Positions 18,350-47,500 of a stretch of 64,000 nt of DNA are shown in pieces. The DNA comes from Octopus vulgaris. Lineage: Eukaryota. A program made the position numbers and the translations under genes. The stretch is from NCBI GenBank assembly GCA_951406725.2, contig OX597830.1, forward strand, positions 68,696,001-68,760,000, in the 5' to 3' direction. Below the pieces are notes generated by a model that did no database searches, had not been told where the DNA came from, and worked only from the letters and a program-made list of their open reading frames with translations. Position 1 is the stretch's first letter; every line of letters starts with the position of its first letter.

Positions 18350-19860
18350 TAGATTCTGTTACGAACGTCGTAGACACGCAACGTAGTTCTCCAGGCTTGC
18401 AGGTATTTGTTTATGTAACCGTTTCCCTGCATTATACGATCTAGTTGTGCTTCAAGGGCATCCTATTCGTTCGTCGTCGCCTGCGAGCTTGAAGCAGCCA
18501 CTGAGTGTATCAAGAGATGTATCTCTTGATATAGTGAGATGTATCAAGAGATGTATCTCTTGATACAGTCAGATGTATCTGTTGATACTCTAAGAATAAC
18601 GCAGATTATATCGGCAGACAAAATGTCGTCAAAATTTTAAGAAATGATATATAAACCACAAAGCTAATCCATTAATGTATGTCGTATTGTTGCTATGTGT
18701 AGGTGCTTTCCATGGGTGGCTGTGTTGAGTATAGTATGATGTGGGCGAATTAGTTCTCAACTGTTTAATACCCAATATTGCAGAGAAAAACTTACAAATT
18801 GCATGGGTATATATTAAATTTATACAAGAGAATATAGAATGGAAATATATATATAACAATTGCCAATCCAAAACTTAAAATTTAAAATATATTAGCATAA
18901 CAGCTGCCATATGCGTATCTTCCATTGCTATTATACTTACTCACTAATCTTCTTCAACCATTAGCTGTTTTTCTACTTCCTACACTATTAATACTACAGC
19001 GATCTCTAACTGGATTTCTGCACATATCCACTACTCCACTAATCAGGCCCACTTAAGACATCAAACTCTCCTACTCTCATCGCACTTATTCCACGTGATC
19101 TCTTTGATCGTGCATTAAACTGTCTGTCTGCTTACTCCTCCAAGAGCAACGGTCTTATAATTCTCTCACCAGTCATTTTATTTCTTATTGAAACCAACCT
19201 AAACACGTTTAAACTAAAAATCCACTGGATTCATCTGTAACAGTATAGATTTTTAAAAATTGGTAACACTAGGCAACAAAATTTTTGCTACTACTAGACG
19301 AAACGGTGCTCATAGGTAATTTGGGAGCGCTGATTCCGAATCTGGAATCATTTTTGTTCTAGCACGTCACATTTTTGCGCTATCATTATTATGCTGCTAT
19401 CAAAATTATAATAATATGAAAATTCATGACAAATCAAATGTATATTATGTTAAGCGTAAATTACTGTTATTTGATATAATAACAATAGCAACTAGGTGAA
19501 CAAGTGGCTCTAAAACCAATGAAACACAAGACAAAAGTGTAAGTGAATATTATTAATTTTATGTTTTTCAAAAATAGCTTTGGCGTCTTCTTTTACGCTT
19601 CTGCTGCATATCCGTTTCTCGTTTTAAAAACCAGCAGTAGTCCGTCAGCATGTTTGCTGTAAGCCTGCCACTGTAGCGCCTTTCTAGCTCTTTGATTTCG
19701 TGATGATGTCGTTCACCCTGCTCATCGCTTACATCACTCATACTGAGTGGAAAAAAAGTCAAGATGACAGTGGACGAAATGAATTTTTAGAGACATTCTT
19801 GTCCCAAGTTGCTCATGAGCTTTCGAAAAATCTTTCACAATTGCAACATAGTTAGATGAA

Positions 19861-19885
19861 GTGGCGGTGTGGTAAGTAGCTTGCT
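19861..19885 (+). mobile_element. 5' stub of a tRNA-derived SINE (target site of the array)
   Basis: GTGGCGGTGTGGTAAGTAGCTTGCT continues seamlessly into the SINE at 28453. Confidence 0.75.
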
Positions 19886-22076
19886 TTCTTCATTGCGCAT
19901 GTGTGAATCAGAGTTGTGTTTGATACTGAAGCTGTAAGATGTGTTTTTGAAGCTGTCTTAAATGGAAGATTTTTGAAACTCAGCTGTAAGGTAAGATTTT
20001 TGGTGTCCAGTGGGGACCTGTTGTTTGCCGCAACTATTTTTTACAAACAAGAAGTCCTCACTGGATTCTAGTCTACCTGGAGCTGAGTGAATTTTTTTTT
20101 TTCACTTAATTGTGAAAGTTTTTGTATAGGTGGGCGCTTGAAAATAGTATTTGTCCAGGAATAACTCCGTGGGAATTTTTAGAAAAATTTCAACAATATT
20201 GTTCCTGTCAAGGTGTACCTATTAGAAGAAAATTGGAATGATTTTTTTAACTGTTTAACATTTGCGTTAAAATTTTGGCATTCAGTGCCGAGTGGCCTTT
20301 GCTGTATTTTGAACTGTTGCTCTCTCTTCATCTATCTTTTATTTTAAAAAAACTCTTTATTGAGCTGTTATTTTTCTCCTTCCTTTTTGTTTGAACTTTT
20401 TTCTCTTCCTTCATTTTCCTTAGTTATTTTGTATTTTAAAACTGTATTTTTGGACTTTTTTAAAAAACATGGCAAATAACAATGGAAAGTTGGTGGAGTG
20501 GGAAATTACGCCACCCAAAAGTTGGTTAAAAGAACTTGAAAGTAAGACGGTGGTTTTGAAGACCTACTCTAGGACCTTCAACGCCATTGCCGTTTTCATA
20601 AAGGATATAATCGAAAGAGAGCTGGCAGAATTTAAGCCAGCGATTAAGTTTATCTCTCGGGAGTCAAATACGCAACCATGTGGTTGCTGTTTGAATCCCC
20701 AGAAGTGGCTTGTGAATTTGCGAGCCAGCCCTGGAGGGCAATGAAATTTTGTTTCTTCCAACTTATTGTGGGAAGAAGTTGACGAGAGCCTGGGTATGCG
20801 GCTTGCCACCCGGAGTTGAGCACGAAGGGATAGGAGATGCTATCCGCCGGGGTATGGGTGGCAGTAGCACCAAGCTCCTCAACGTAAATATTCTGCCTCC
20901 GGCTTACTGGGGGGAGTCAAAAATTGTTTTGACCCTATGGACCCAGTCAGCCGAAGGTCTGGTATTTCGAGACTTTTTGAGAATGGCCGGGTCTAGGTAT
21001 CCGGTAATGCTTGAGGGACGCCCCCGCCCCAATTGTTATCTGTACCTGGAGCCTGGCCAAATAAATAAGAACTCTCCTCAAGGGCAAAGCAAAGTCCTGG
21101 AGCGGTTGACGGAGACCTCTGTAGAGGAAGGAATGAAGGCGGCCGAAGAGACGAAGGACTCCTCAAAGAAGAGCCGCAAAAGGAAGAAGGTGAGCAATAA
21201 TGGGTGCCCACCGAAGGATCCTAAGGATGAGGGAGGAGAGGCGAATCTCCCGGTCACGGAAGAGACGCACCCTCCCAGTCGAGAAGAAAAAAAGAGGAAG
21301 AGGAGGAGAAACGGGACATTGCCGGCAGTCGGAAACATGGCGCCGGAGTGTCCCCGAGCCTCATCGGTTGTGTCACCGGCGGGGCGGAAATTGTGCCGCC
21401 AACGGTAGAATTGACCCCCTCGGACCCGGAGGACGAAGAACAGTTGGTCTTCTTTTATAGAGGTGGAGAGGTGGAAAAGGTGGTGGCAGAACACTACGAG
21501 GGAGTACCTTTGGCCTTCACACGGGATCCCGAATGGCCTCCACAGATAGCTGTGGAAGTGATAACGTTGCGCGTGTTACATAGGCTGGAGGGAATAAAAG
21601 AGAAATATCGTTCGTGGCCGGGTGACGCCAACTCGGAGCCCGTCTTGATTTTAAAGCAAGCATGGGTGAATGTGGAGTACATGGACACAAGCGATGATGA
21701 GGTGGAAAATTGACAAGAGGTTGAAAAGCCTCAGTATTATAAAGTGCAAGAGGCTCAGCGCCTCATTTGTAAATGGACTAGTGTTGATTGTATATTGAAT
21801 ATTTTATTGTATGTTATTGCATGTTATTATTTGTAATGGACTATTAAGTCCAATAATTGTAAAAACTGTCGTGAGAGGTTCAATACCGCATTTTGTTTTT
21901 GTTTTTTCTGTTGGAAAAAAAGAAGAATGATGTTTTAGAGAAGCAGAAAATCGGCGGACGTTTTTTTGTCTTCTCCCATCAATATCATCCTTGTTTCATC
22001 ATTCACCTTATCAATGTATGTGTCCAGCCCGCAAGCCTCTCTTTCTAATGCCTTTATGGCAAACCTTAATGAAATA
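19886..22076 (+). mobile_element. ORF1-only L1/Tx1-like retroelement, family A copy 1
   Basis: Frameshifted ORF of about 415 codons (20469-21713) with a degenerate Zn knuckle (CYLYLEPGQINKNS), basic and acidic tails. 3' end ...GCCTTTATGGCAAA...AATA; flanked by AAGTAGCTTGCT repeats. No RT or endonuclease. Confidence 0.65.
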
Positions 22077-22100
22077 AAGTAGCTTGCTTACCAACCCATG

Positions 22101-23909
22101 AGTCTTTGAGACTTCCCATAAGTCTTTGTTGTCAGTGTACGCATGCGTCATTTTGATGTGCACTGAAAAAGACAGTCGGCAGTGTTTAACCTGCCAAAAA
22201 GAAGCTGCTGCAAGGTAAGACTTTTGTCTCTTGAGTCCAGTGGGGGTTGTTGTCTGTGGTTATATTTTTTACAAACAAGTAGTCCTCAGTGGATTCAGGA
22301 TGTTGGTCTGCTTGCGGTTCAGCAATATTGGGAGCGTATCCTTCAACCAAAAGTTGTTCACTTTTTAATAGTGCATGTTTTTACAACAACATTTACCATT
22401 TATTGGAAAGCTGTATTTCAAGTGTCCACATTAAGTGAAAATTTTTTCTCGTTGTGAGAAGTATAGTTTGGTGGCGTATCCTGCCACCAAAAGTTGTTCG
22501 CTGTTTGTGAATAGTGTGCATTTTTACAACTACGTTTACCAATAATTGGAAAGCTGTATTTCAAGTGAATCAGTCCAGGTTCTAATTGGAATACCATAGG
22601 GTTTGGAGTACCTGAACGCCCAGGAGATTTTTTGCTGTGTTTTGTTGAACTATTGTTTTCTTCTTCTATTGTGACTTTCTTATTGAACTGTTTGCTTTTT
22701 ATCTTCTTCCCTTTTGCTTCCTTTTGATTTCTCACTTTTCTTTTTGAAATTTGTGAACTATTTTGGGGACTTTTTACTTTTTATTTTAAAACATGGCAAA
22801 AAATACGGATAAGATTGTAGAGTGGGAGATTGTCCCACCTAAGGAGTGGTTCAGACAGCAAGAGGGAAGGACGGTGGTGTTGAGAACGTATTCGAAGGTT
22901 CTCGACACCATTACCGTCATCTCCAAGCAGATGAATGAGCAGGAGTTGGTGGAACATATGCTATCCATTAAGTATATCTCAAATATGCAACGGTGTGGTT
23001 GCTGTTTGACACTCCAGAGAAAACTCGCAGTTTTGCGAGCCAGCCCTTTGAGGGTAAAGAAATTTTGTTTCTTCCCACTTATTGTGGGAAAAAATTGATG
23101 AAGGCTTGGGTTTGTGGTTTGCCACCCTGAATTGAACCTCAATGGATAGAGGATACTATCCGTCGGGGTCTGGGTAGCAGCGGAGCCAGGCTCCTCAATG
23201 TGAAAATTCTTCCTACGTATGATTGGGTTGGGTCAAAAGCTGTTTTGACCCTGTGGGCCCAATCAGCCATGAATCTGGTTATGCCAGATTTTTTGAAAAT
23301 GGCCGGGTGCAGGTACCTGGTGATTCTTGGGGTCGCCCCTTTCCCAGGTGTCATCGGTGCCTGGAGCCAAGCCATATAAAGAAAAGCTGTCCTCGGGAAT
23401 AAAGCAAAGTCCTGGAGATCTCTGTAGAAGGAACGAAGACAGCCGAGGAGACGGAGGACTCCTCAAAGAAGGGCCGCTAGAGGAAGAAGGTGAGCAACAA
23501 TGGGTGCTCAACAAAGGATCCTAGAGATGAGGGAGGCGAGGCGAATCTCTCGGTCACGGAGGAGACGCACCCTCCCTTAGTTGAGAGGAAAAAATAGGAA
23601 GAGGAAGAGAAATGGGACATTGCTGGCAGTCGGTGACATAGAACCAAAATGTCCCGGAACCTTGCCGGTAGGGGTTGTGCCTCCGGCAGGGTAAGAGACG
23701 CCGTTGGGAGCAATTGTGCCCCCAGCGGTAGAATTGACTACCTCGAACTCAGAGGAAGAGGAACTATTGGTCTTCTTCTACAGAGGAGGAGAGATTGAAG
23801 AGGTGTTGGAAAAGCACCATAAGGGAGTACCTTTAACCTTCACACAGGATCCCGAATGCCCTCCGTAGATAGCTGTGGAGCTCATAACGTTGCCCGTGAC
23901 GTATATGCT
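22101..23909 (+). mobile_element. ORF1-only retroelement, family B copy 1 (runs into the gap)
   Basis: Homologous ORF from ATG 22793 (MAKNTDKIVEWEIVPP...), with CX2CX4HX4C knuckle CHRCLEPSHIKKSC at about 23349-23390; frameshifted. Confidence 0.65.
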
Positions 23910-24009
23910 NNNNNNNNNNNNNNNNNNNNNNNNNNNNNNNNNNNNNNNNNNNNNNNNNNNNNNNNNNNNNNNNNNNNNNNNNNNNNNNNNNNNNNNNNNN
24001 NNNNNNNNN
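23910..24009. other. Assembly gap (100 N placeholder)
   Basis: Run of N. Confidence 1.
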
Positions 24010-26161
24010 GAAGCTGTAAGATGTGTTTTTGAAGCTGTCTTAAATGGAAGATTTTTGAAACTCAGCTGTAAGGTAAGATTTTTGGTGTCCAGTGGGGACC
24101 TGTTGTTTGCCGCAACTATTTTTTACAAACAAGAAATCGTCACTGGATTCTAGTCTATCTGGGCCTGAGTGAATTTTTTTTTTTTTCACTTAATTGTGAA
24201 AATTTTTGTTTTGGTGGGCGCTTAAAAATAGTATTTGTCCAGGAATAACTCCGTGGGAATTTTTAGAAAAATTTCAACAATATTGTTCCTGTCAAGGTGT
24301 ACCTATTAGAAGAAAATTGGAATGATTTTTTTAACTGTTTAACATTTGCGTTAAAATTTTGGCATGCAGTGCCGAGTGGCCTTTGCTGTATTTTGAACTG
24401 TTGCTCTCTCTTCATCTATCTTTTATTAAAAAAAAACTCTTTATTGAGCTGTTATTTTTTCTCCTTCCTTTTTGTTTGAACTTTTTCTCTTCCTTCATTT
24501 TCCTTAATTATTTTGTATTTTAAAACTGTATTTTTGGACTTTTTTAAAAAAACATGGCAAATAACAATGGAAAGTTGGTGGAGTGGGAAATTACGCCACC
24601 CAAAAGTTGGTTAAAAGAACTTGAAAGCAAGACGGTGGTTTTGAGGACCTACTCTAGGACCTTCGACGCCATTGCCGTTTTCATAAAGGATATAATCGAA
24701 AGAGAGCTGGCAGAATTTAAGCCAGCGATTAAGTTTATCTCTCGGGAGTCAAATACGCAACCATGTGGTTGCTGTTTGAATCCCCAGAAGTGGCTTGTGA
24801 ATTTGCGAGCCAGCCCTGGAGGGCAATGAAATTTTGTTTCTTCCAACTTATTGTGGGAAGAAGTTGACGAGAGCCTGGGTATGCGGCTTGCCACCCGGAG
24901 TTGAGCACGAAGGGATAGGAGATGCTATCCGCCGGGGTATGGGTGGCAGGTAGCACCAAGCTCCTCAACGTAAATATTCTGCCTCCGGCTTACTGGGGGA
25001 GTCAAAAATTGTTTTGACCCTATGGACCCAGTCAGCCGAAAGTCTGGTATTTCGAGACTTTTTGAGAATGGCCGGGTCTAGGTATCCGGTAATGCTTGAG
25101 GGACGCCCCCGCCCCAATTGTTATCTGTACCTGGAGCCTGGCCAAATAAATAAGAACTCTCCTCAAGGGCAAAGCAAAGTCCTGGAGCGGTTGACGGAGA
25201 CCTCTGTAGAGGAAGGAATGAAGGCGGCCGAAGAGACGAAGGACTCCTCAAAGAAGAGCCGCAAAAGGAAGAAGGTGAGCAATAATGGGTGCCCACCGAA
25301 GGATCCTAAGGATGAGGGAGGAGAGGCGAATCTCCCGGTCACGGAAGAGACGCACCCTCCCCCAGTCGAGAAGAAAAAAGAGGAAGAGGAGGAGAAACGG
25401 GACATTGCCGGCAGTCGGAAACAAGGCGCCGGAGTGTCCCCGAGCCTCATCGGTTGTTCACCGGCGGAGCGGAAATTGTGCCGCCAACGGTAGAATTGAC
25501 CCCCTCGGACCCGGAGGACGAAGAACAGTTGGTCTTCTTTTATAGAGGTGGAGAGGTGGAAAAGGTGGTGGCAGAACACTACGAGGGAGTACCTTTGGCC
25601 TTCACACGGGATCCCGAATGGCCTCCACAGATAGCTGTGGAAGTGATAACGTTGCGCGTGTTACATAGGCTGGAGGGAATAAAAGAGAAATATCGCTCGT
25701 GGCCGGGTGACGCCAACTCGGAGCCCGTCTTGATTTTAAAGCAAGCATGGGTGATGGTGGAGTACATGGACACAAGCGATGATGAGGTGGAAAATTGACA
25801 AGAGGTTGAAAAGCCTCAGTATTATAAAGTGCAAGAGGCTCAGCGCCTCATTTGTAAATGGACTAGTGTTGATTGTATATTGAATATTTTATTGTATGTT
25901 ATTGCATGTTATTATTTGTAATGGACTATTAAGTCCAATAATTGTAAAAACTGTCGTGAGAGGTTCAATACCGCATTTTGTTTTTGTTTTTTCTGTTGGA
26001 AAAAAAGAAGAATGATGTTTTAGAGAAGCAGAAAATCGGCGGACGTTTTTTTGTCTTCTCCCATCAATATCATCCTTGTTTCATCATTCACCTTATCAAT
26101 GTATGTGTCCAGCCCGCAAGCCTCTCTTTCTAATGCCTTTATGGCAAACCTTAATGAAATA
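24010..26161 (+). mobile_element. ORF1-only retroelement, family A copy 2
   Basis: Nearly identical to 19930-22076 and shares the same early frameshifts. Confidence 0.65.
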
Positions 26162-26185
26162 AAGTAGCTTGCTTACCAACCCATG

Positions 26186-28452
26186 AGTCTTTGAGACTTC
26201 CCATAAGTCTTTGTTGTCAGTGTACGCATGCGTCATTTTGATGTGCACTGAAAAAGACAGTCGGCAGTGTTTAACCTGCCAAAAAGAAGCTGCTGCAAGG
26301 TAAGACTTTTGTCTCTTGAGTCCAGTGGGGGTTGTTGTCTGTGGTTATATTTTTTACAAACAAGTAGTCCTCAGTGGATTCAGGATGTTGGTCTGCTTGC
26401 GGTTCAGCAATATTGGGAGCGTATCCTTCAACCAAAAGTTGTTCACTTTTTAATAGTGCATGTTTTTACAACAACATTTACCATTTATTGGAAAGCTGTA
26501 TTTCAAGTGTCCACATTAAGTGAAAATTTTTTTCTCGTTGTGAGAAGTATAGTTTGGTGGCGTATCCTGCCACCAAAAGTTGTTCGCTGTTTGTGAATAG
26601 TGTGCATTTTTACAACTACGTTTACCAATAATTGGAAAGCTGTATTTCAAGTGAATCAGTCCAGGTTCTAATTGGAATACCATAGGGTTTGGAGTACCTG
26701 AACGCCCAGGAGATTTTTTGCTGTGTTTTGTTGAACTATTGTTTTCTTCTTCTATTGTGACTTTCTTATTGAACTGTTTGCTTTTTATCTTCTTCCCTTT
26801 TGCTTCCTTTTGATTTCTCACTTTTCTTTTTGAAATTTGTGAACTATTGTCTTTTGTTTTGGACATTTTACTTTTTAATTTAAAACATAGCAAAAATACG
26901 GATAAGATTGTAGAGTGGGAGATTGTCCCACCTAAGGAGTGGTTCAGACAGCAAGAGGGAAGAACGGTGGTGTTGAGAACGTATTCGAAGGTTCTCGACA
27001 ACATTGCCGTCATCTCCAAGCAGATGAATGAGCAGGAGTTGGTGGAACATATGCTATCCATTAAGTATATCTCTAGGGGCGTCAAATATGCAACGGTGTG
27101 GTTGCTGTTTGACACTCCAGAGAAAACTCGCAGTTTTGCGAGCCAGCCCTTTGAGGGTAAAGAAATTTTGTTTCTTCCCACTTATTGTGGGAAAAAATTG
27201 ACGAAGGCTTGGGTTTGTGGTTTGCCACCCGGAATTGAACCTCAGTGGATAGAGGATACTATCCGTCGGGGTCTGGGTGGCAGCGGAGCCAGGCTTCTCA
27301 ATGTGAAAATTCTTCCTGTGGATGATTGGGTTGGGTCAAAAGCTGTTTTGACCCTGTGAGCCCAATCAGCCATGAAGCTGGTTATGCCAGATTTTTTTTA
27401 AATGGCCGGATGCAGGTACCCGGTGATTCTTGGGGTCGCCCCCTCCCCAGGTGTCATCGGTGCCTGGAGCCAGGCCATATAAAGAAAAACTGTCCTCAGG
27501 AATAAAGCAAAGTCCTGGAGATCTCTGTAGAAGGAACGAAGACAGCCGAGGAGACGGAGGACTCCTCAAAGAAGGGCCGCTAGAGGAAGAAGGTGAGCAA
27601 CAATGGGTGCTCAACGAAGGATCCTAGAGATGAGGGAGGCGAGGCGAATCTCCCGGTCACGGAGGAGACGCGCCCTCCCTCAGTTGAGAGGAAAAAAGAG
27701 GAAGAGAAATGGGACATTGCCGGCAGTCGGTGACATAGAACCGGAATGTCCTGGAACCTTGCCGGTAGGGGTTGTGCCTCCGGCAGGGTAAGAGACGCCG
27801 TTGGGAGGAATTGTGCCCCCAGCGGTAGAATTGACTACCTCGAACCCAGAGGAAGAGGAACTATTGGTCTTCTTCTGCAGAGGAGGAGAGGTTGAAGAGG
27901 TGTTGGAAAAGTACCATAAGGGAGTAGCTTTAACCTTCACACAGGATCCCGAATGCCCTCCGTAGATAGCTGTGGAGGTCATAACGTTGCCCGTGACGTA
28001 TATGCTGCAGGGACTGAATGAGGAATAACGCTTGTGGCCGGGCGGATCCCGCCTTGGTCTTGAATGAGGCGTGGGGGATGGCGGAGTATATGGGCACAAG
28101 CGATGTTGGTGAGGAATAGTGACATGTGGTTGAAAAGACTCAGTGTTATAATGTTTATTGTATAATGTTTAATGATTATTGCATGTTATTGTGTTTAAGA
28201 GGCTTAACGCCCCAATTCTTAAATGGACTATTAGTCCAAAAATTGTAAAACTGAAGTAAGAGGTTCATTACCTCGTTTTGTCTTTTTCTGTTAAAAAAAA
28301 CGAGAGAATTATGTTTTAGAGAAGCAAAAACAGGCGGGCGTTTTTTGTCTTCTCCTATTAATATCATCCTTTTCATCATTCACCTCGTCAATGTCTTTGT
28401 CCAGCCCGCAAGCTACTCTATATCATGCCTTTATGGCAAAATTTTTTAAATA
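26186..28452 (+). mobile_element. ORF1-only retroelement, family B copy 2
   Basis: ORF frame 26847-27359 continues past a TGA to an intact knuckle CHRCLEPGHIKKNC. The 3' UTR is homologous to family A and ends at AATA|AAGTAGCTTGCT. Confidence 0.65.
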
Positions 28453-28846
28453 AAGTAGCTTGCTCACCAAACACATGGTTCCGGATTCAGTCCCACCGCA
28501 TGGCACCTTGGGCAAGTATCTTCTACTATAGCCTCGGGCCGAACAAAGCCTTGTGAGTGGATTTGGTAGACGGAAACGGAAAGAAAGCACGTCGTATATA
28601 TGTATATATATATATATGTGTGTGTATTTGTGTGTGTGTGTATATGTTTGTGTGTCTGTGTTTGTCCCACCAACCTCGCTTGACAACCGATGCTGGTGTG
28701 TTTACGTCTCCGTAACTTAGCGGTTCGGCAAAAGACTGATAGAATAATTATTAGGCGTACAAAGAATAAGTCCTGGGGTCGATTTGCTCGACTAAAGGCG
28801 GTCCTCCAGCATGGCCGCAGTCAAATTACTGAATCAAGTAAAAGAG
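28453..28846 (+). mobile_element. tRNA-derived SINE (octopus-type), remainder after the insertions
   Basis: GGTTCCGGATTCAGTCCC (B box), CACCTTGGGCAAGT (CORE-like), internal (TA)/(TG) repeat, LINE-like tail ending GTAAAAGAG. Confidence 0.85.
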
Positions 28847-31039
28847 ACAATTTTTTTAAAAATGCGAAGAGAAACATTTTCCCAAGCAGCTTTCTCTACT
28901 GGGTTTAATTTTTCTTGAAAAAGTTCATCACAGATTAGTGTGCGAATTTCTGGTCCATTAAAAACACTAGCTTTGATCTTAGCTTCACTCTTACTAGAAA
29001 CAAATTTTTCCCTGAGATATTTGAATCCTACACCGCCTTCATTTATGGCCTTAACAAAATTCTTAAATAAGCCAACTTTAATGTGTAAAGGGGGAAGATA
29101 AATTTTCTGCGAGTCAACTAAAGAGATATATTTAACGTTGTATTTCCCTGGAGTGAAATCACTTCTCTTTGGCCACTCTTTTTGATCAAAGCGATGCTTG
29201 TCATCTCTGCTTGTCCAAAAGCACAAAAAACACTGATGCGTTGTATACTCCATTTGCAACCCAAGAAGCAAACCAATAACTTTCGAGTCCCCGCATATTT
29301 TCCACTTGTGTTCAGAATGCTTAATCAAGTGCAAAATTTTATCCCTTGATTCATAAGTTTCCTTTAATCCTACAGTATGTGCTAGTGGTATTGAAAGTTT
29401 TTGATTGCTATTATGCAGCAAAGCAGCTTTTAAGCTTGCTTTTCTGGAATCTTTGAAGAGTTTCCATTCTTCAGGATTATGGCTGTACCCCACCTCACGC
29501 AGGAGTCCTTCAACATCAAAGCAAAAACAAATACCGTCTTTCTCCGTAAAAAATCCATGTAATTCTGTATGCAGTTTTCGAAAATACGAGCATTATACAT
29601 CATCGTGTTAAAGATCCCATTGTTTCAACCTGGAGCTAAGTAGTTCTGACTTTTCTTTTGTTAAACCCAAGTCTTTAACTAAATCATTTAACTCAAGTTG
29701 ACTTAATAAATAAGGAACATTTTTGAAGATCCTGGTTCATCACAGGGATGTGCTGCATCACTAGGCACGACTTCAATTGAAGTAGATGCAGTGCTTTCTT
29801 CACTTAAACTATCTTTGTCAAAAGATGAAAGAGGTTCTGGAATTTAAATATTTTCAGCACTATGAGCAACTGATATTAAAGCTGAAGGGCAATCTGGATA
29901 AATAATCTTGGATTTGTTCTTCTTTGAGAAACCTGTGATGTTAGTTAAGCAGAAATAACAATCGGTATAGTGGTTTGTTGGTTCGCGCCATATCATTGGT
30001 AATGCAAATGGCATACTTTTCCATTTACCATTCAGCCATTGGGTTAGTGCTATAGAGCAGATTTTGTAACAAACATGAGGCCCCCACAGTTTACCTTGAT
30101 ACCCAACTTTGCACCCAAAGCAAAACTTGTAAGCATTTAAAAATTTCTTTGTAAGCATATTTCTCTGATCTTTTGGTGCAAATTTTCCACACACTTAACA
30201 AAAGCTGTTCGGGTGATTAACACAAATGTTTCTGCTCATCATAAGTACATACAGTAATAACCTAAATCAACACTCAAAGAAGCCTATCAGTTAACTAAAA
30301 TATAAAATATAAAATGTAAATCATCAAAATATATTTCTCAAAAAAAAAAAAAAAAAAATTAAAATTATAGAATGTACTGAAAGTATGGCTATCATGGAAC
30401 ATTGATCACTTTAATAAATAACAAAACTACTTTTCATATAACCTGGCTCCCTATTTGATGTCCTTTGTTATGTCCTGCAGTTATCAAGAAAAGTGAGTGT
30501 GTGTGGTTTACTATAACCTAATATCAATAGCCTACCGTTAGGAGAACTTTACTATAATTACAGCGATAACGAAGTAAAATAAATTCTCATCTTTTGTAGC
30601 AATTTAACAGGTATCCTACATTTTCTTCTGATAGCACTTAACTTTGTTTCACTGATAAGTTTATGAATGAAAATCGAAAGCAAATAGCCTACTACTTTGT
30701 CAATATTATCAATTGGTTGGAAAATCTGATGCTTTGAATAAGTAAAAATTCTACACGTGCTGTCTGAAAACTGATGTCACATTGGGATTCAGCACCTTCA
30801 AGTTACTCTAAATCAGCTCAAAATGTTTAAATAGCATGACAATTTTTCTTTCTTTTTAGCCCAGGGTAATTTAACTCAAGTAAACACTGGACAGAAAATG
30901 AACACGTATCTTTTTCTTTTCTTTTTTTTTTTCAATTATTTTTTTAATAATTATTATTTAAAAAATTAACAAAGAATTCGCAAAGATATATTTACTCAAG
31001 CATCTATATGACATTTAGTGAAGCATCTGTACAAGGTAT

Positions 31040-44567: not shown

Positions 44568-47500
44568 TAGTTTTATTTTTATAGCGTGCTTTCACTTCAC
44601 TACCGAGCGCAGCTCTCTGTGCCTTGGGTATGTGCTGTGATTTGTTGTGATGCTCTGATTGTTATTGTATGGAAAGTGTTCTGCGTAGGATGTGTGCAGT
44701 GCCTAGTAGTGCAATTTTCTGCATCTTATATGTGTTTGTAAGTCCTGGTGTTTTTGTTATGTATTTGTCTGAATATTTTTTTATCATGCCTAATGCACCT
44801 ACTATGATAGGAATTGTTTCTGTTTTCAGATTCCACATTCTAGTTACCTCTATTTCCAGGTCTTTGTAATTTGAGAGTTTCTCCATTTCTTTTAGAGACA
44901 CGTTGTCATCTGCCGGTATTGATACATCAATTAGAAAGCATTTTTTTCTTCATGATCTCTGACAACTATATCTGGTCTGTTGGCCCTAATTTTTCTATCT
45001 GTGTATATCGGCATATCCCAGAGTATGGTTGCTTTCTCGTTTTCTGTGACCTTTTCTGGTATGTGCCCATACCATCTTTTTTCTGTTGTTATTCCATAAT
45101 GTTGGCATAGCTTCCAATGTATGTAGGTTCCAACTCAGTCATGTCTGTGAATATATTCCTTCTTAGCCAGGACTGGGCAGCTAGAGATAATATGATTTAT
45201 TGTTTCTTGTCCATCTCCACATATTCTGCAGTTACTTGTTATATTTCTTTTCATTACATGTTTTTGGTAATTTCTGGTGGGAGGCTTTGGTCTTGTGCTG
45301 CAATTAAAAGTCCCTCTGTTTCTGCTTTGAGTCCTGAGCTTCTCAACCATTGCTGGGATTTTTCTTTGTCTATTTCTTTTGCGTATAGTTTAGTCCAGTA
45401 TTTACCATGAAGGGGCTTTTCTTGCCATCGTTTTAGCATGGTTCGTTGCTGTTCTATTTTTAGTTTGGATTTCATTTGTTTTATAGCTTTTGTTGTTTCT
45501 TCCTCTTCTTCTTCTTCTTCTTCATGTTTATTAGGTGTTATGATTTCTTGTTTGTATTTGTCAGCTTCCTTAAATACTGAGAACAGTTTTTTGTTTTGTT
45601 TGTGTTTTGCCGCTATCTGAAGTAGATATTTTTGCAGTCCTATGGTGGTTATTTTATAGTAGTTTTCCAGCTGTATAAGGCCTCTACCACCTTCTATACG
45701 TTGTATATATAGTCTTTCTATGTCAGATTTTGGGTGATGCATCCTAGATCCTGTCATTATTTTTCTTGTTTTCCTATCTATTTTGGTCAGTTCATTTCGT
45801 GTCCAGTTAAGGATATTGTAGCTGTAACTTATAATTGGGACAGCCAAAGTGTTGATACCTTTTATCTTGTTTTTAGCATTGAGCTCTGTTTTTAGTATTG
45901 ATCTAACTCGTCTATAATATTCTTTTTTATTTTCTCTTTCATTTGTGTGTGTTGTGTCTTATCTAGTTCATGGATTCCTAAGTATTTGTAAGTTTGGATT
46001 TGGTCTAATTCTTTTATTTCATTGGTTTTATCTAGTGTGATGTTATTACTCTTAACTAGTTTTCCTCTTTTCATGGTTACTTTGGCGCATTTTTCTAATC
46101 CAAATTTCATATCCATTTCTTTGGTAAATCCATGAACTGTCTTTAATAGTGTTTCCAGCTGTTTGTCATTTGCAGCGTATAGTTTTAGGTCATCCATATA
46201 TAAAAGGTGGCTGATCGTTTTGCCGTAACATTTATATCCGCATCCAGTTCTATTTAGTATATTAGATAGAGGTGACAGTGCCAAGCAGAAAAGGAGTGGA
46301 GAGAGCGTGTCTCCCTGGAATATTCCTCTTCTAATGGGGATGGCTTTGGTTTTCATGAGTCCCTCTTTTGTTTGGAGGTGTAGGACTGTTTGCCATTTAT
46401 TCATAGAGTGCTCTATGAATTTTATGATTGTTGGTGCTACTTTGTTAATGGCTAGTGTTTCGAGGATCCATGTGTGGGGGTGCTATCAAACGCCTTTTTG
46501 TAGTCAATCCAGGCCATACTGAGGCCTTTCTTCTTTCTGTGGTTGTCTTCAGTTATGGCTTTATTAATCATTAGTTGATCTTTACAGCCATATGAGCCTT
46601 TGCGGCATCCTTTCTGCTCTTCTGGAAACAGTTTGTTTTCGTCCAGGTGCTTGTTCAGCCTTTGCAATATCACTGCAGTAAATGCCTTGAACATAGTAGG
46701 GAGGCAGGTTATTGGTCTGTAGTTTTCTGGTTTTGCTGTTTCATTTGATTTGGGAATTAAGATGGTTTTCCCCTTCGTGAGCCATTCAGGCATTGTCTCT
46801 GGCTCTGCTAGTATGTTGTTAAAGTTTTCAGCCAGCTTTTTGTGCATTCCTGTTAGATATTTCAACCAGAAGTTGGGGATCTTGTTATGTCCAGGTGCCT
46901 TCCAGTTGCTTAGTCTTTGCAGTGCCTGGGTGACCTCTTCAGTTGTTATGGGGGTCCAAAGTTCTTTAGATGCCGAGTTTGTTATTTTGATACTCCTTTT
47001 TTTGGTTGTTCGTTCGCCGACCATATTTCTCTCCAGAATTCTTCCAATTCTTCTGCCGTTGGTGCTGCAGTGACTTCTATTTTATTTTTGCCCAGTTCTT
47101 GTTAGAACTTTTTGGGGTTGGAGTTGAACTTTTTGTTTTGTTCAAAGAAGCGCTGGCGTTTCTCGTACCGGCGGATCCTTTGTGCTTTGGCAAGGATATC
47201 TTGCTTCAGCTTTTCTTTTATCTCAGGCAAATCTTTCTCTGTGATGTTATATTTGCGGAGTATTTTTGTTCTCTTTTTGTTGCTCAGTAGCGTTGATTGT
47301 TTGCTGATTTCATTAAGAATCGACAGGTCTTTTCTAATTTTTTTTATTTTGTTTTGGATGTTATTTATCCACAGGGTTTGTTTGGGTGGTGGTACTCCTG
47401 TTTGGGCGGGTTTGGGTGAGTATCCAGCTTCTTTTGTGGCTGCAGTGGCTGCTGCGTATATTAAGTCATTTAGCTGAGTGATATCACTTTTTTTTTTGTT

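Follow-up and report, generated by a model that had tools for sequence, protein, structure and literature searches.

The locus

How does a short interspersed nuclear element (SINE) come to be split by about 8.6 kb of sequence in which one and the same junction recurs? The question is raised by a window of 64,000 nucleotides (the whole stretch of DNA analysed here) from Octopus vulgaris, positions 68,696,001 to 68,760,000 of contig OX597830.1 in assembly GCA_951406725.2, in which the head and the body of a SINE are separated by elements of two kinds, A and B, in the order A-B-gap-A'-B'. A sequence-only reading of the window, made by a model without database searches, had proposed that these are site-specific, non-autonomous retroelements which carry only the first open reading frame (ORF1) of a long interspersed nuclear element (LINE) and are stacked at one nucleotide of the SINE. 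We consider it very likely that A and B stem from a clade of such ORF1-only elements inserted at one base of the SINE, and that these elements, termed riders below, are probably copied in trans by the apurinic endonuclease and reverse transcriptase (APE-RT) of a LINE of the L1/Tx1 type, termed the partner, which inserts at the same base.

The 12-mer AAGTAGCTTGCT occurs exactly four times in the window, starting at 19874, 22077, 26162 and 28453. The first copy is preceded by a SINE head ending in GTGTGGT, and the other three stand directly after ...AATA, at the visible 3' ends of elements; the split head, the element order, the 100-N gap at 23910-24009 and the common position of the 3' ends (22077, 26162, 28453) are all as first described. 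A and B are 74% alike over the ORF and the 3' part. The features of the locus are:

19861..19873, + strand: 5' remnant of the target SINE head, cut after GGT; from the sequence, with an A-box-like TGGCGGTGTGG by eye
19874..19889, + strand: 5' junction repeat of A, the 16-nt target motif with 2 mismatches; from the perfect 16-mer in a paralogue (L061), other A copies and the family-fixed positions 11-16 in young families
19890..22076, + strand: element A, an ORF1-only non-LTR (long terminal repeat) element of 2187 bp; from genome-wide copies
20469..21713, + strand: broken ORF1 of A, with frameshifts and a degenerate knuckle; 4 pieces aligned to an intact relative (P0001), 54-60% identical
22049..22061, + strand: terminal TGCC-N5-GGCA hairpin of A, ~15 nt before the AAATA end and common with the autonomous partner; from the conserved stem
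22077..22096, + strand: A/B junction, target motif AAGTAGCTTGCTTACCAACC (20 nt); from the sequence, with an identical junction in L061
22097..23909, + strand: element B, cut by the gap, with a broken ORF1 from 22793 and an intact knuckle motif at 23349-23390; from alignment
23910..24009, no strand: 100-N assembly gap, in place of B's last ~450 bp, the junction and A's first ~40 bp; from alignment of the copies
24010..26161, + strand: A', a copy of A from the 39th base on, with a broken ORF1 at 24554-25798; from alignment
26162..26181, + strand: A'/B' junction, identical to the A/B junction; from alignment
26182..28452, + strand: B', a complete copy of B, with a broken ORF1 at about 26887-28119 (start codon lost, 8 stops), a knuckle motif at 27452-27493 and a terminal hairpin at 28426-28438; from sequence and alignment
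28453..28594, + strand: target SINE body, made up of the target motif, a B-box-like GGATTCAGTCCC by eye, the 3' part and then a (TA)n/(TG)n tail; 74-92% to SINE copies at other loci

The right half of this array is a copy of the left. Positions 19928-23909 align with 24010-28006 at 97.5% identity over 4008 bases, with 64 substitutions and 14 indels. In the same octopus assembly, which was the genome searched throughout (G000; 2.8 Gb, 227 contigs), a segmental paralogue of the region (L061, C17:44.843-44.853 Mb) lies 24 Mb away on the same contig, with flanks that are 95% alike. It holds the flank, the head, A, the identical A/B junction and 570 bp of B, followed by a deletion in which the greater part of B, the SINE body and some 1 kb of flank are lost, among them the part informative on the gap duplication. 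Over the 2706 columns common with this paralogue, A-B and A'-B' differ from each other at 34 and have 86 differences from the paralogue in common. Such likeness identifies A'-B' as a copy of A-B rather than two further insertions, so that the window records two insertions, A and B once each, and one later copy, not four insertions; the copy is either a tandem duplication or a second haplotype placed across the assembly gap. The proposal of insertions stacked at one SINE nucleotide thus stands for A and B and falls for A'-B'.

Each window element has one ORF homologous to an intact 414-amino-acid relative, and all four are broken: that of A into 4 pieces in different frames, that of A' into 5, with 7 stops in the main piece of B and 8 in that of B'. 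B (23349) and B' (27452) keep an intact CX2CX4HX4C motif, which has decayed in A and A'. A tblastn search of 19800-28600 with the partner's ORF2 gave nothing better than E 7, and Pfam gave nothing under E 0.2 on the broken ORF pieces of the window. Of the gag/ORF1-like frame first ascribed to every element, the homology, the lack of ORF2 and the intact knuckle of B are borne out, and unbroken frames are not. A and B are evidently dead copies of an ORF1-only clade.

Target site and junctions

A DNA search with the last 177 nt of A, in which the best 40 of 1603 candidates were scored and 30 loci fetched, showed that 25/30 A-like 3' ends continue into the 16-nt target motif (22/27 without the window and its paralogue). 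Young relatives, here family D, were collected by a protein search with the N-terminus of B (best 150 of 9645 candidates scored); all 20 loci picked for long open frames end at the target site, most of them with a near-identical ORF of ~414 amino acids. The same holds for the 30 best copies of the partner, chosen by ORF2 protein, 29 exactly and one with one A less. Insertion at random sites, which would have refuted the first proposal, is not what these three samples show. At the other end, 29 of 30 copies found with the first 215 nt of A follow the motif, 28 after a SINE head and 1 after another element's end, the 30th being a gap; 18 of these copies lie in two amplified clusters (C30/C31) with common flanks and amount to about two events. 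Exact patterns counted genome-wide gave 56,133 empty sites, 478 occupied 3' junctions and 0 for reversed-pattern controls, and uninterrupted SINEs read ...GGAGTGGCTGTGTGGT-AAGTAGCTTGCTTACC....

In family D (n=17) the last 110 nt diverge by 1.1% on average and the next 110 nt of SINE by 10.5%; in the partner (n=30) the element ends diverge by 0.5% and the adjacent SINE bodies by 7.6%. Since SINE bodies diverge 10-14 times more than the element ends they adjoin, the SINE halves are the insertion target and lie outside the element, and the motif does not belong to the element consensus. The SINE itself is ~165 bp long, with a microsatellite tail, a high copy number and A- and B-box-like motifs by eye. 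On the strength of these features it may be tRNA-derived; ARAGORN found 0 genes in 6 loci, and Rfam found no tRNA or other family near its cut-off in the region or the SINE.

The junctions differ in precision. Joined straight to the target, 89 of 90 junction-delimited elements end in AAATA with no poly(A), and in young families the 3' junction is base-precise. In these ends and in the fixed site the riders are unlike HAL1, an ORF1-only LINE with a poly(A) tail and unspecific insertion. All four stem pairs of the terminal hairpin are kept in 81/90 elements with a varying loop; its folding energy is no better than that of shuffles (z +0.2 to -1.8). Where full-length young copies begin, positions 11-16 of the motif at the 5' junction track the element family and not the local target in 14/14 informative copies (CTAACC in the partner and D1, CTTACC in D2). 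Private variants at motif positions 1 (L093) and 7 (L110) are present on both sides of the element. Together these patterns indicate that full-length copies take ~9-10 nt from the target by copying and receive another 6-7 nt with the RNA. One extra T stands at that point in 5/18 partner copies, and truncated copies duplicate 10-17 nt. We infer that the first nick is fixed and the second cut variable, and that a leader derived from the target would pair with the cut end. A specificity-strengthening role of co-transcribed target sequence is stated for R2 in one paper (PMC4494074).

Both duplications first described in the window were misread. The '12-bp duplication' of A belongs to the 16-nt motif with 2 later mismatches, perfect in the paralogue, likely with ~9-10 nt of target copy and 6-7 nt supplied by the element. 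The '24-bp duplication' of B is made up of 20 target-like nt and CATG of B's own 5' end, other B copies starting ...CCCATGAGTC.

That the 5' motif is in part element-encoded (positions 11-16 in full-length copies), and that nearly all copies are flanked by both SINE halves, would also be expected of a composite element, in which a SINE head as promoter, the ORF and a SINE tail move as a unit with the SINE's own LINE and the apparent target is internal. This account is very improbable and largely refuted by the 10-14-fold divergence of adjacent SINE bodies, and further by copies truncated at different 5' points which still stand between SINE head and body (L004, L082, L199, L220, L298, L072), by the private target variants on both sides, by elements that follow one another without SINE halves between them, and by older D-like copies residing in another SINE variant, AAGAAG...TTCC.

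A separate observation concerns the two amplified clusters: at G000 C30:18.5-21.1 Mb and on C31, at least 18 A-like copies form clusters with common flanks, apparently an old insertion amplified with a segmental array.

The ORF1-only riders

Among the 90 junction-delimited elements, 61 carry the rider ORF and no ORF2 (by tblastn with the partner ORF2), 22 carry ORF2 sequence and 7 are short or other. The ORF1-only elements have a median length of 2.2 kb, 57 of the 61 spanning 1.9-3.0 kb, and the clade can be described as ~2.2-kb elements with one ORF, comprising two predicted RNA recognition motifs (RRMs) and a CCHC knuckle, and no ORF2. Its site specificity, as first proposed, shows in the 3' ends of both A-like copies and family D.

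The intact family D protein of 414 amino acids (P0001) gave only a weak zf-CCHC match in Pfam. Its residues 1-205 are 24-34% identical to ORF1 of APE-RT-zinc-finger LINEs in the same genome, and blastp against 17 ORF1 stretches of APE-RT LINEs in G000 gave E values from 3e-30 to 3e-4; the same 205 residues match 62 representatives in a 50% library. The model of residues 1-208 has a predicted local distance difference test (pLDDT) score of 90, and its Foldseek matches are all tandem-RRM proteins (best E 1e-4, TM 0.2-0.35), the low TM being due to two domains hinged differently. The RRM plus zf-CCHC architecture anticipated for a protein of ~415 amino acids was accordingly found in prediction. 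Past the RRMs follow a basic low-complexity linker and an alpha/beta domain of ~95 residues, for which no clear match was obtained (model pLDDT 67; the highest VIA Z, 5.3, fell among ferredoxin-like alpha/beta folds). In comparisons of unbroken ORFs across families D, E and F (residues 1-205, 8 copies), dN/dS is 0.13-0.29 at a dS of 1.1-1.8, which is close to saturation; the rider ORF1 is under purifying selection.

In a 23-row ORF1 tree, a single clade on a long branch (100/100) unites the 8 ORF1-only rows from G000 with an Octopus sinensis 'uncharacterized protein', with no resolved sister. A word-indexed protein search returned just two relatives, both from Octopus sinensis. By blastp and tree, the rider protein is best read as the ORF1 of L1/Tx1-type LINEs and not as a product of a spliced host gene family. 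That the elements are processed pseudogenes of a host zinc-knuckle gene is extremely improbable: Atlas look-alikes do include ZCCHC3-like clusters at 0.91 and the 5' untranslated region (UTR) has a splice-donor-like motif, but the homology to LINE ORF1 runs across both RRMs and the knuckle, and many families each have young copies, no poly(A), a fixed site and a tail common with a LINE. We regard the riders as retroelements. Several families each contain young copies, the nearest copies of family D being 0.2-0.5% apart, and 5' truncation, target duplication and many dispersed copies, hallmarks of retrotransposition, are all present.

The families are mosaic. One ORF occurs with different 5' UTRs (D1, D2, L113), unlike ORFs carry one and the same 5' UTR (L113 and E; D2 and L301), and an F-type N-terminus is joined to an E-type C-terminus; the loci concerned are L109, L122, L113, L272/L284, L221, L288 and L301. 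These mosaics point to module swapping between riders. At L181:1399-1505, a 90-nt derivative made of the first 47 and last 43 nt of D lies at the target between head and body, possibly the seed of a non-coding rider.

The autonomous partner

The partner was identified via the occupied-junction pattern and not via a search for zf-RVT: with five ORF2 queries, 7 of the first 30 occupied sites had the C-terminus of an ORF2 immediately upstream, and these queries revealed no further ORF2 type at the sites. Of 50 loci read from among the 150 best zf-RVT matches, none ended at the SINE site; one such locus, L137, has a motif-like 16-mer downstream without a SINE body.

Full-length copies of the partner occupy 5.45 kb between SINE head and body. 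Exo_endo_phos (PF03372), RVT_1 (PF00078) and zf-RVT (PF13966) in ORF2, as well as PF00098 for a CCHC-type ORF1, score over the Pfam cut-off, and the best solved relative of ORF2 is L1 ORF2p (E 4e-67, residues 6-870), R2 following at E 8e-20. Both ORFs are open in 3/16 copies checked, and young copies are 0.2-1.2% from their nearest relative. We class the partner as an APE-RT LINE of the L1/Tx1 group with a predicted reverse transcriptase nearer to L1 than to R2-type enzymes; no Tx1 name occurs among the 120 best reverse transcriptase relatives listed for it, and 'Tx1' is a label taken from the architecture and from the listing of L1-Tx1 families for Octopus vulgaris. In cephalopod repeat papers, as far as their accessible text goes, L1-Tx1 appears just as counts, including families for Octopus vulgaris (PMC13282606, PMC8967140).

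An autonomous partner with an APE-RT ORF2 and a 3' UTR common with the riders had been predicted. The partner exists at the site, and at the DNA level only its first ~16 and last ~35 nt are common with the riders, the tail being 78-81% alike over 27-37 nt; its ORF1 is 28% identical to that of the riders. Several partner-like subfamilies with different tails are also at the site.

A simple internal ORF2 deletion of the present partner was ruled out as the origin of the riders by the 28% identity of the ORF1s, the DNA likeness confined to the ends and the separate clade (100/100). The riders are an old separate lineage, which likely originated from an older relative.

Stacks

Riders and partner occur head to tail in many combinations: E-D (L284, L285, L286), E-E-D (L302), D-partner (L283), partner-E-partner (L272/273), F-partner-D (L291/269/292), at least three elements in L301 and at least four in L288. 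In exact counts over the whole genome, the 5' junction follows another element's end in 7/51 D1 and 7/58 partner copies (14/109 young copies), an excess of ~7-fold over a naive expectation of 1.7%, twice the site occupancy (binomial P 5e-9), a figure derived from exact patterns on the assumption that all sites are equal.

Such stacks might instead arise by DNA-level duplication, or from read-through dimers copied as units, rather than by re-insertion. This is true of A'-B' in the window, and the E-D order recurs at four loci. As a general account it is nevertheless unlikely, because in stacks unrelated families are combined with one another and with the autonomous element (L283, L288, L291/269/292, L272/273, L301), the D copies of E-D pairs carry two 5' variants, and the nearest relatives of these D copies are D copies elsewhere, not consistently each other. 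Repeated insertion remains the preferred source of the stacks.

Proposed mechanism

The following course of events may be envisaged. The APE endonuclease of the partner would nick the bottom strand opposite GGT|AAG; ORF2p would bind the common 3' hairpin and prime reverse transcription at the nick, with an RNA that probably runs into the first target bases, which would explain the precise, tail-less junction. A cut in the top strand would follow about 9-17 nt downstream; for full-length copies, a 6-7-nt RNA leader of target origin would pair with the cut strand, leaving the 16-nt motif at both ends. Both junctions would remain targets, so that later elements of any family could stack, and the rider's own ORF1p would package its RNA in cis. 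The SINE may also serve as a safe haven, as the sequence-only reading suggested.

Copying in trans is suggested by the use of the same base, the common last ~35 and first ~16 nt, the intact young copies of both parties and the mixed stacks. Several points weigh against the account as a whole. The trans step is read from the common site and common ends, and the common tail, with blastn E values of 0.04-0.4, is short and weak by itself; other Tx1-like families of the genome, off the site, end in a similar hairpin-plus-AATAAAGAAAT style. The ORF1 tree, with its long branch, gives no sister relation between the partner and the ORF1-only clade, and the ORF1 of another family is closer to the riders by blastp (34% versus the partner's 28%). 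Of the A-like 3' ends, 5/30 lack the full motif; 3 continue with AAGT and then diverge, and 2 lack even AAGT. The dS values between families are the near-saturated ones given above. Finally, hot or accessible loci, and not a better target, could account for the excess of stacking, and no polarity was established, the youngest element lying upstream in L272/273 and apparently downstream in E-D pairs.

Some of these points would fit riders that owe their mobility chiefly to a different or an extinct enzyme, the partner merely having the same target: the low identity and non-sister position of the two ORF1s, the differing tails of the partner-like subfamilies and the shortness of the tail likeness. 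We nonetheless hold this to be quite improbable, given that family D (0.2-0.5%) and the partner (0.2-1.2%) are similarly old, have the TAACC leader in common and form stacks together, and that the partner's is the only ORF2 type seen at the first 30 occupied sites with the five queries. Copying by the partner is therefore preferred.

More tentatively, and with slightly less than even confidence, a three-tier system of parasites may be imagined: a LINE with a single-base landing pad in 56,000 SINE copies, which it has followed through the turnover of SINE variants; long-lived riders, with a selected ORF1p of their own only 28% like that of the partner, hijacking the ORF2p of the LINE via the ~35-nt tail; and in both a short 5' leader of target origin that steers the second junction and rebuilds a preferred target, so that HeT-A-like mixed arrays grow at internal sites genome-wide.

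Comparison with known systems

Tx1-Mar LINEs and the non-coding SINEU-3 of crocodilians insert into Mariner-N4_AMi, with tandem copies 'sandwiching a TSD' (target-site duplication; Kojima 2015, PMC4494074). As in the octopus, a Tx1-type LINE and a non-autonomous rider have a common transposon target, tandems arise by sequential insertion and 5'-truncated copies show independent insertion; that target is a Mariner DNA transposon and the rider a short, snRNA-derived non-coding SINE (PMC4494074), whereas the octopus system has a SINE target, 2.2-kb coding riders under selection and a base-fixed site in young families. Tx1L of Xenopus laevis, likewise an APE-type LINE in one sequence of another mobile element, with specificity ascribed to the endonuclease, inserts into the DNA transposon Tx1D, and the accessible portions of the sources mention no ORF1-only rider (PMC4494074, PMC1919474).

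The ORF1-only LINEs listed in one source are HeT-A, HAL1 (L1 clade) and Ag-Sponge (CR1 clade), only Jockey-, L1- and CR1-derived cases being given (PMC5786205). About 40% of Drosophila telomeric families are described as ORF1-only, forming small clades (PMC13534243). HeT-A and telomeric Jockey elements resemble the riders in being ORF1-only, in depending on the ORF2 of other families, in their mixed head-to-tail arrays and in the rise of further ORF1-only families; they differ in belonging to the Jockey clade and residing at chromosome ends, with no sequence target or duplication according to the excerpts available (PMC13534243, PMC5786205). The riders are dispersed inside many contigs at a SINE and have an L1/Tx1-type ORF1 and a partner of the L1 group. 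HAL1 and Ag-Sponge have the same plan of 5' part, ORF1 and 3' tail without ORF2, and sequence-specific insertion is not stated for either in the portion of the source available (PMC5786205). The riders are ORF1-present non-autonomous LINEs that are neither HAL1 nor HeT-A, in a system that targets much as Tx1-Mar/SINEU does and resembles HeT-A in its coding and in the way arrays are built.

Each ingredient has a precedent (Tx1L, Tx1-Mar/SINEU, HeT-A, HAL1), and the combination was not found in the literature searched, nor was a SINE-targeting LINE or an ORF1-only Tx1 element; Repbase, Dfam, supplements and subscription papers lay outside that scope and may hold such families. On our reading, sequence-specific LINEs gain a SINE among their targets, and the short list of ORF1-only elements gains a sequence-targeted case of L1/Tx1 type. 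Young intact riders and a partner with ORF1s only 28% alike make it testable why a non-autonomous element keeps a selected ORF1 and how a ~35-nt tail captures ORF2p in trans. The formation of a LINE's 5' junction becomes testable as well, the 14/14 informative copies pointing to an RNA-borne target leader. As a predicted new APE-type integrase of base precision, the partner is of interest alongside R2-type tools. In the annotation of octopus genomes, rider ORFs are repeats called as genes, as in the 'uncharacterized protein' of Octopus sinensis.

Further observations

A strong splice-donor-like motif, mostly AG|GTAAG, lies near the 5' UTR starts in the window (19991, 22215, 24073, 26300) and 60-120 nt from the 5' end in L109, L122, L113, L272, L257, L213 and L089. 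Riders and partner have it in common although their 5' UTRs are not otherwise related, and a pyrimidine tract precedes the ATG. An acceptor-like CTAAT...TTTCAACAG stretch, kept in all full-length copies examined, ends 4 nt before the ATG of the partner. No RNA record was found for the window. At a locus holding D and the partner, contigs of three presumed-RNA runs reach 30, 27 and 27 of 30 bins, for which an intronic or DNA origin is possible, and no splice joint was seen there among the 15 joints listed (164 more exist); the D 5' UTR is uncovered in two presumed-RNA runs, which carries no evidential weight.

Other Tx1-like LINEs of the genome show arrangements of their own. At L157 (G000 C2:73.046-73.068 Mb), five head-to-tail copies of one of them stand 5.4 kb apart, several with a 1140-amino-acid ORF2, and the related L158 and L161 have common downstream sequence, which hints at another specific target. 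Downstream flanks common within a family were also seen for three further groups (L162, L163, L165; L175, L176; L168, L172), which may be target-specific or segmental copies.

Elsewhere in the window, a 252-amino-acid open frame just 3' of the SINE (28834-29592, - strand) looks by eye like the remnant of a DNA-transposon protein, and 46036-46952 (- strand) holds a fragment of an unrelated LINE reverse transcriptase, 24-27% identical to that of the partner.

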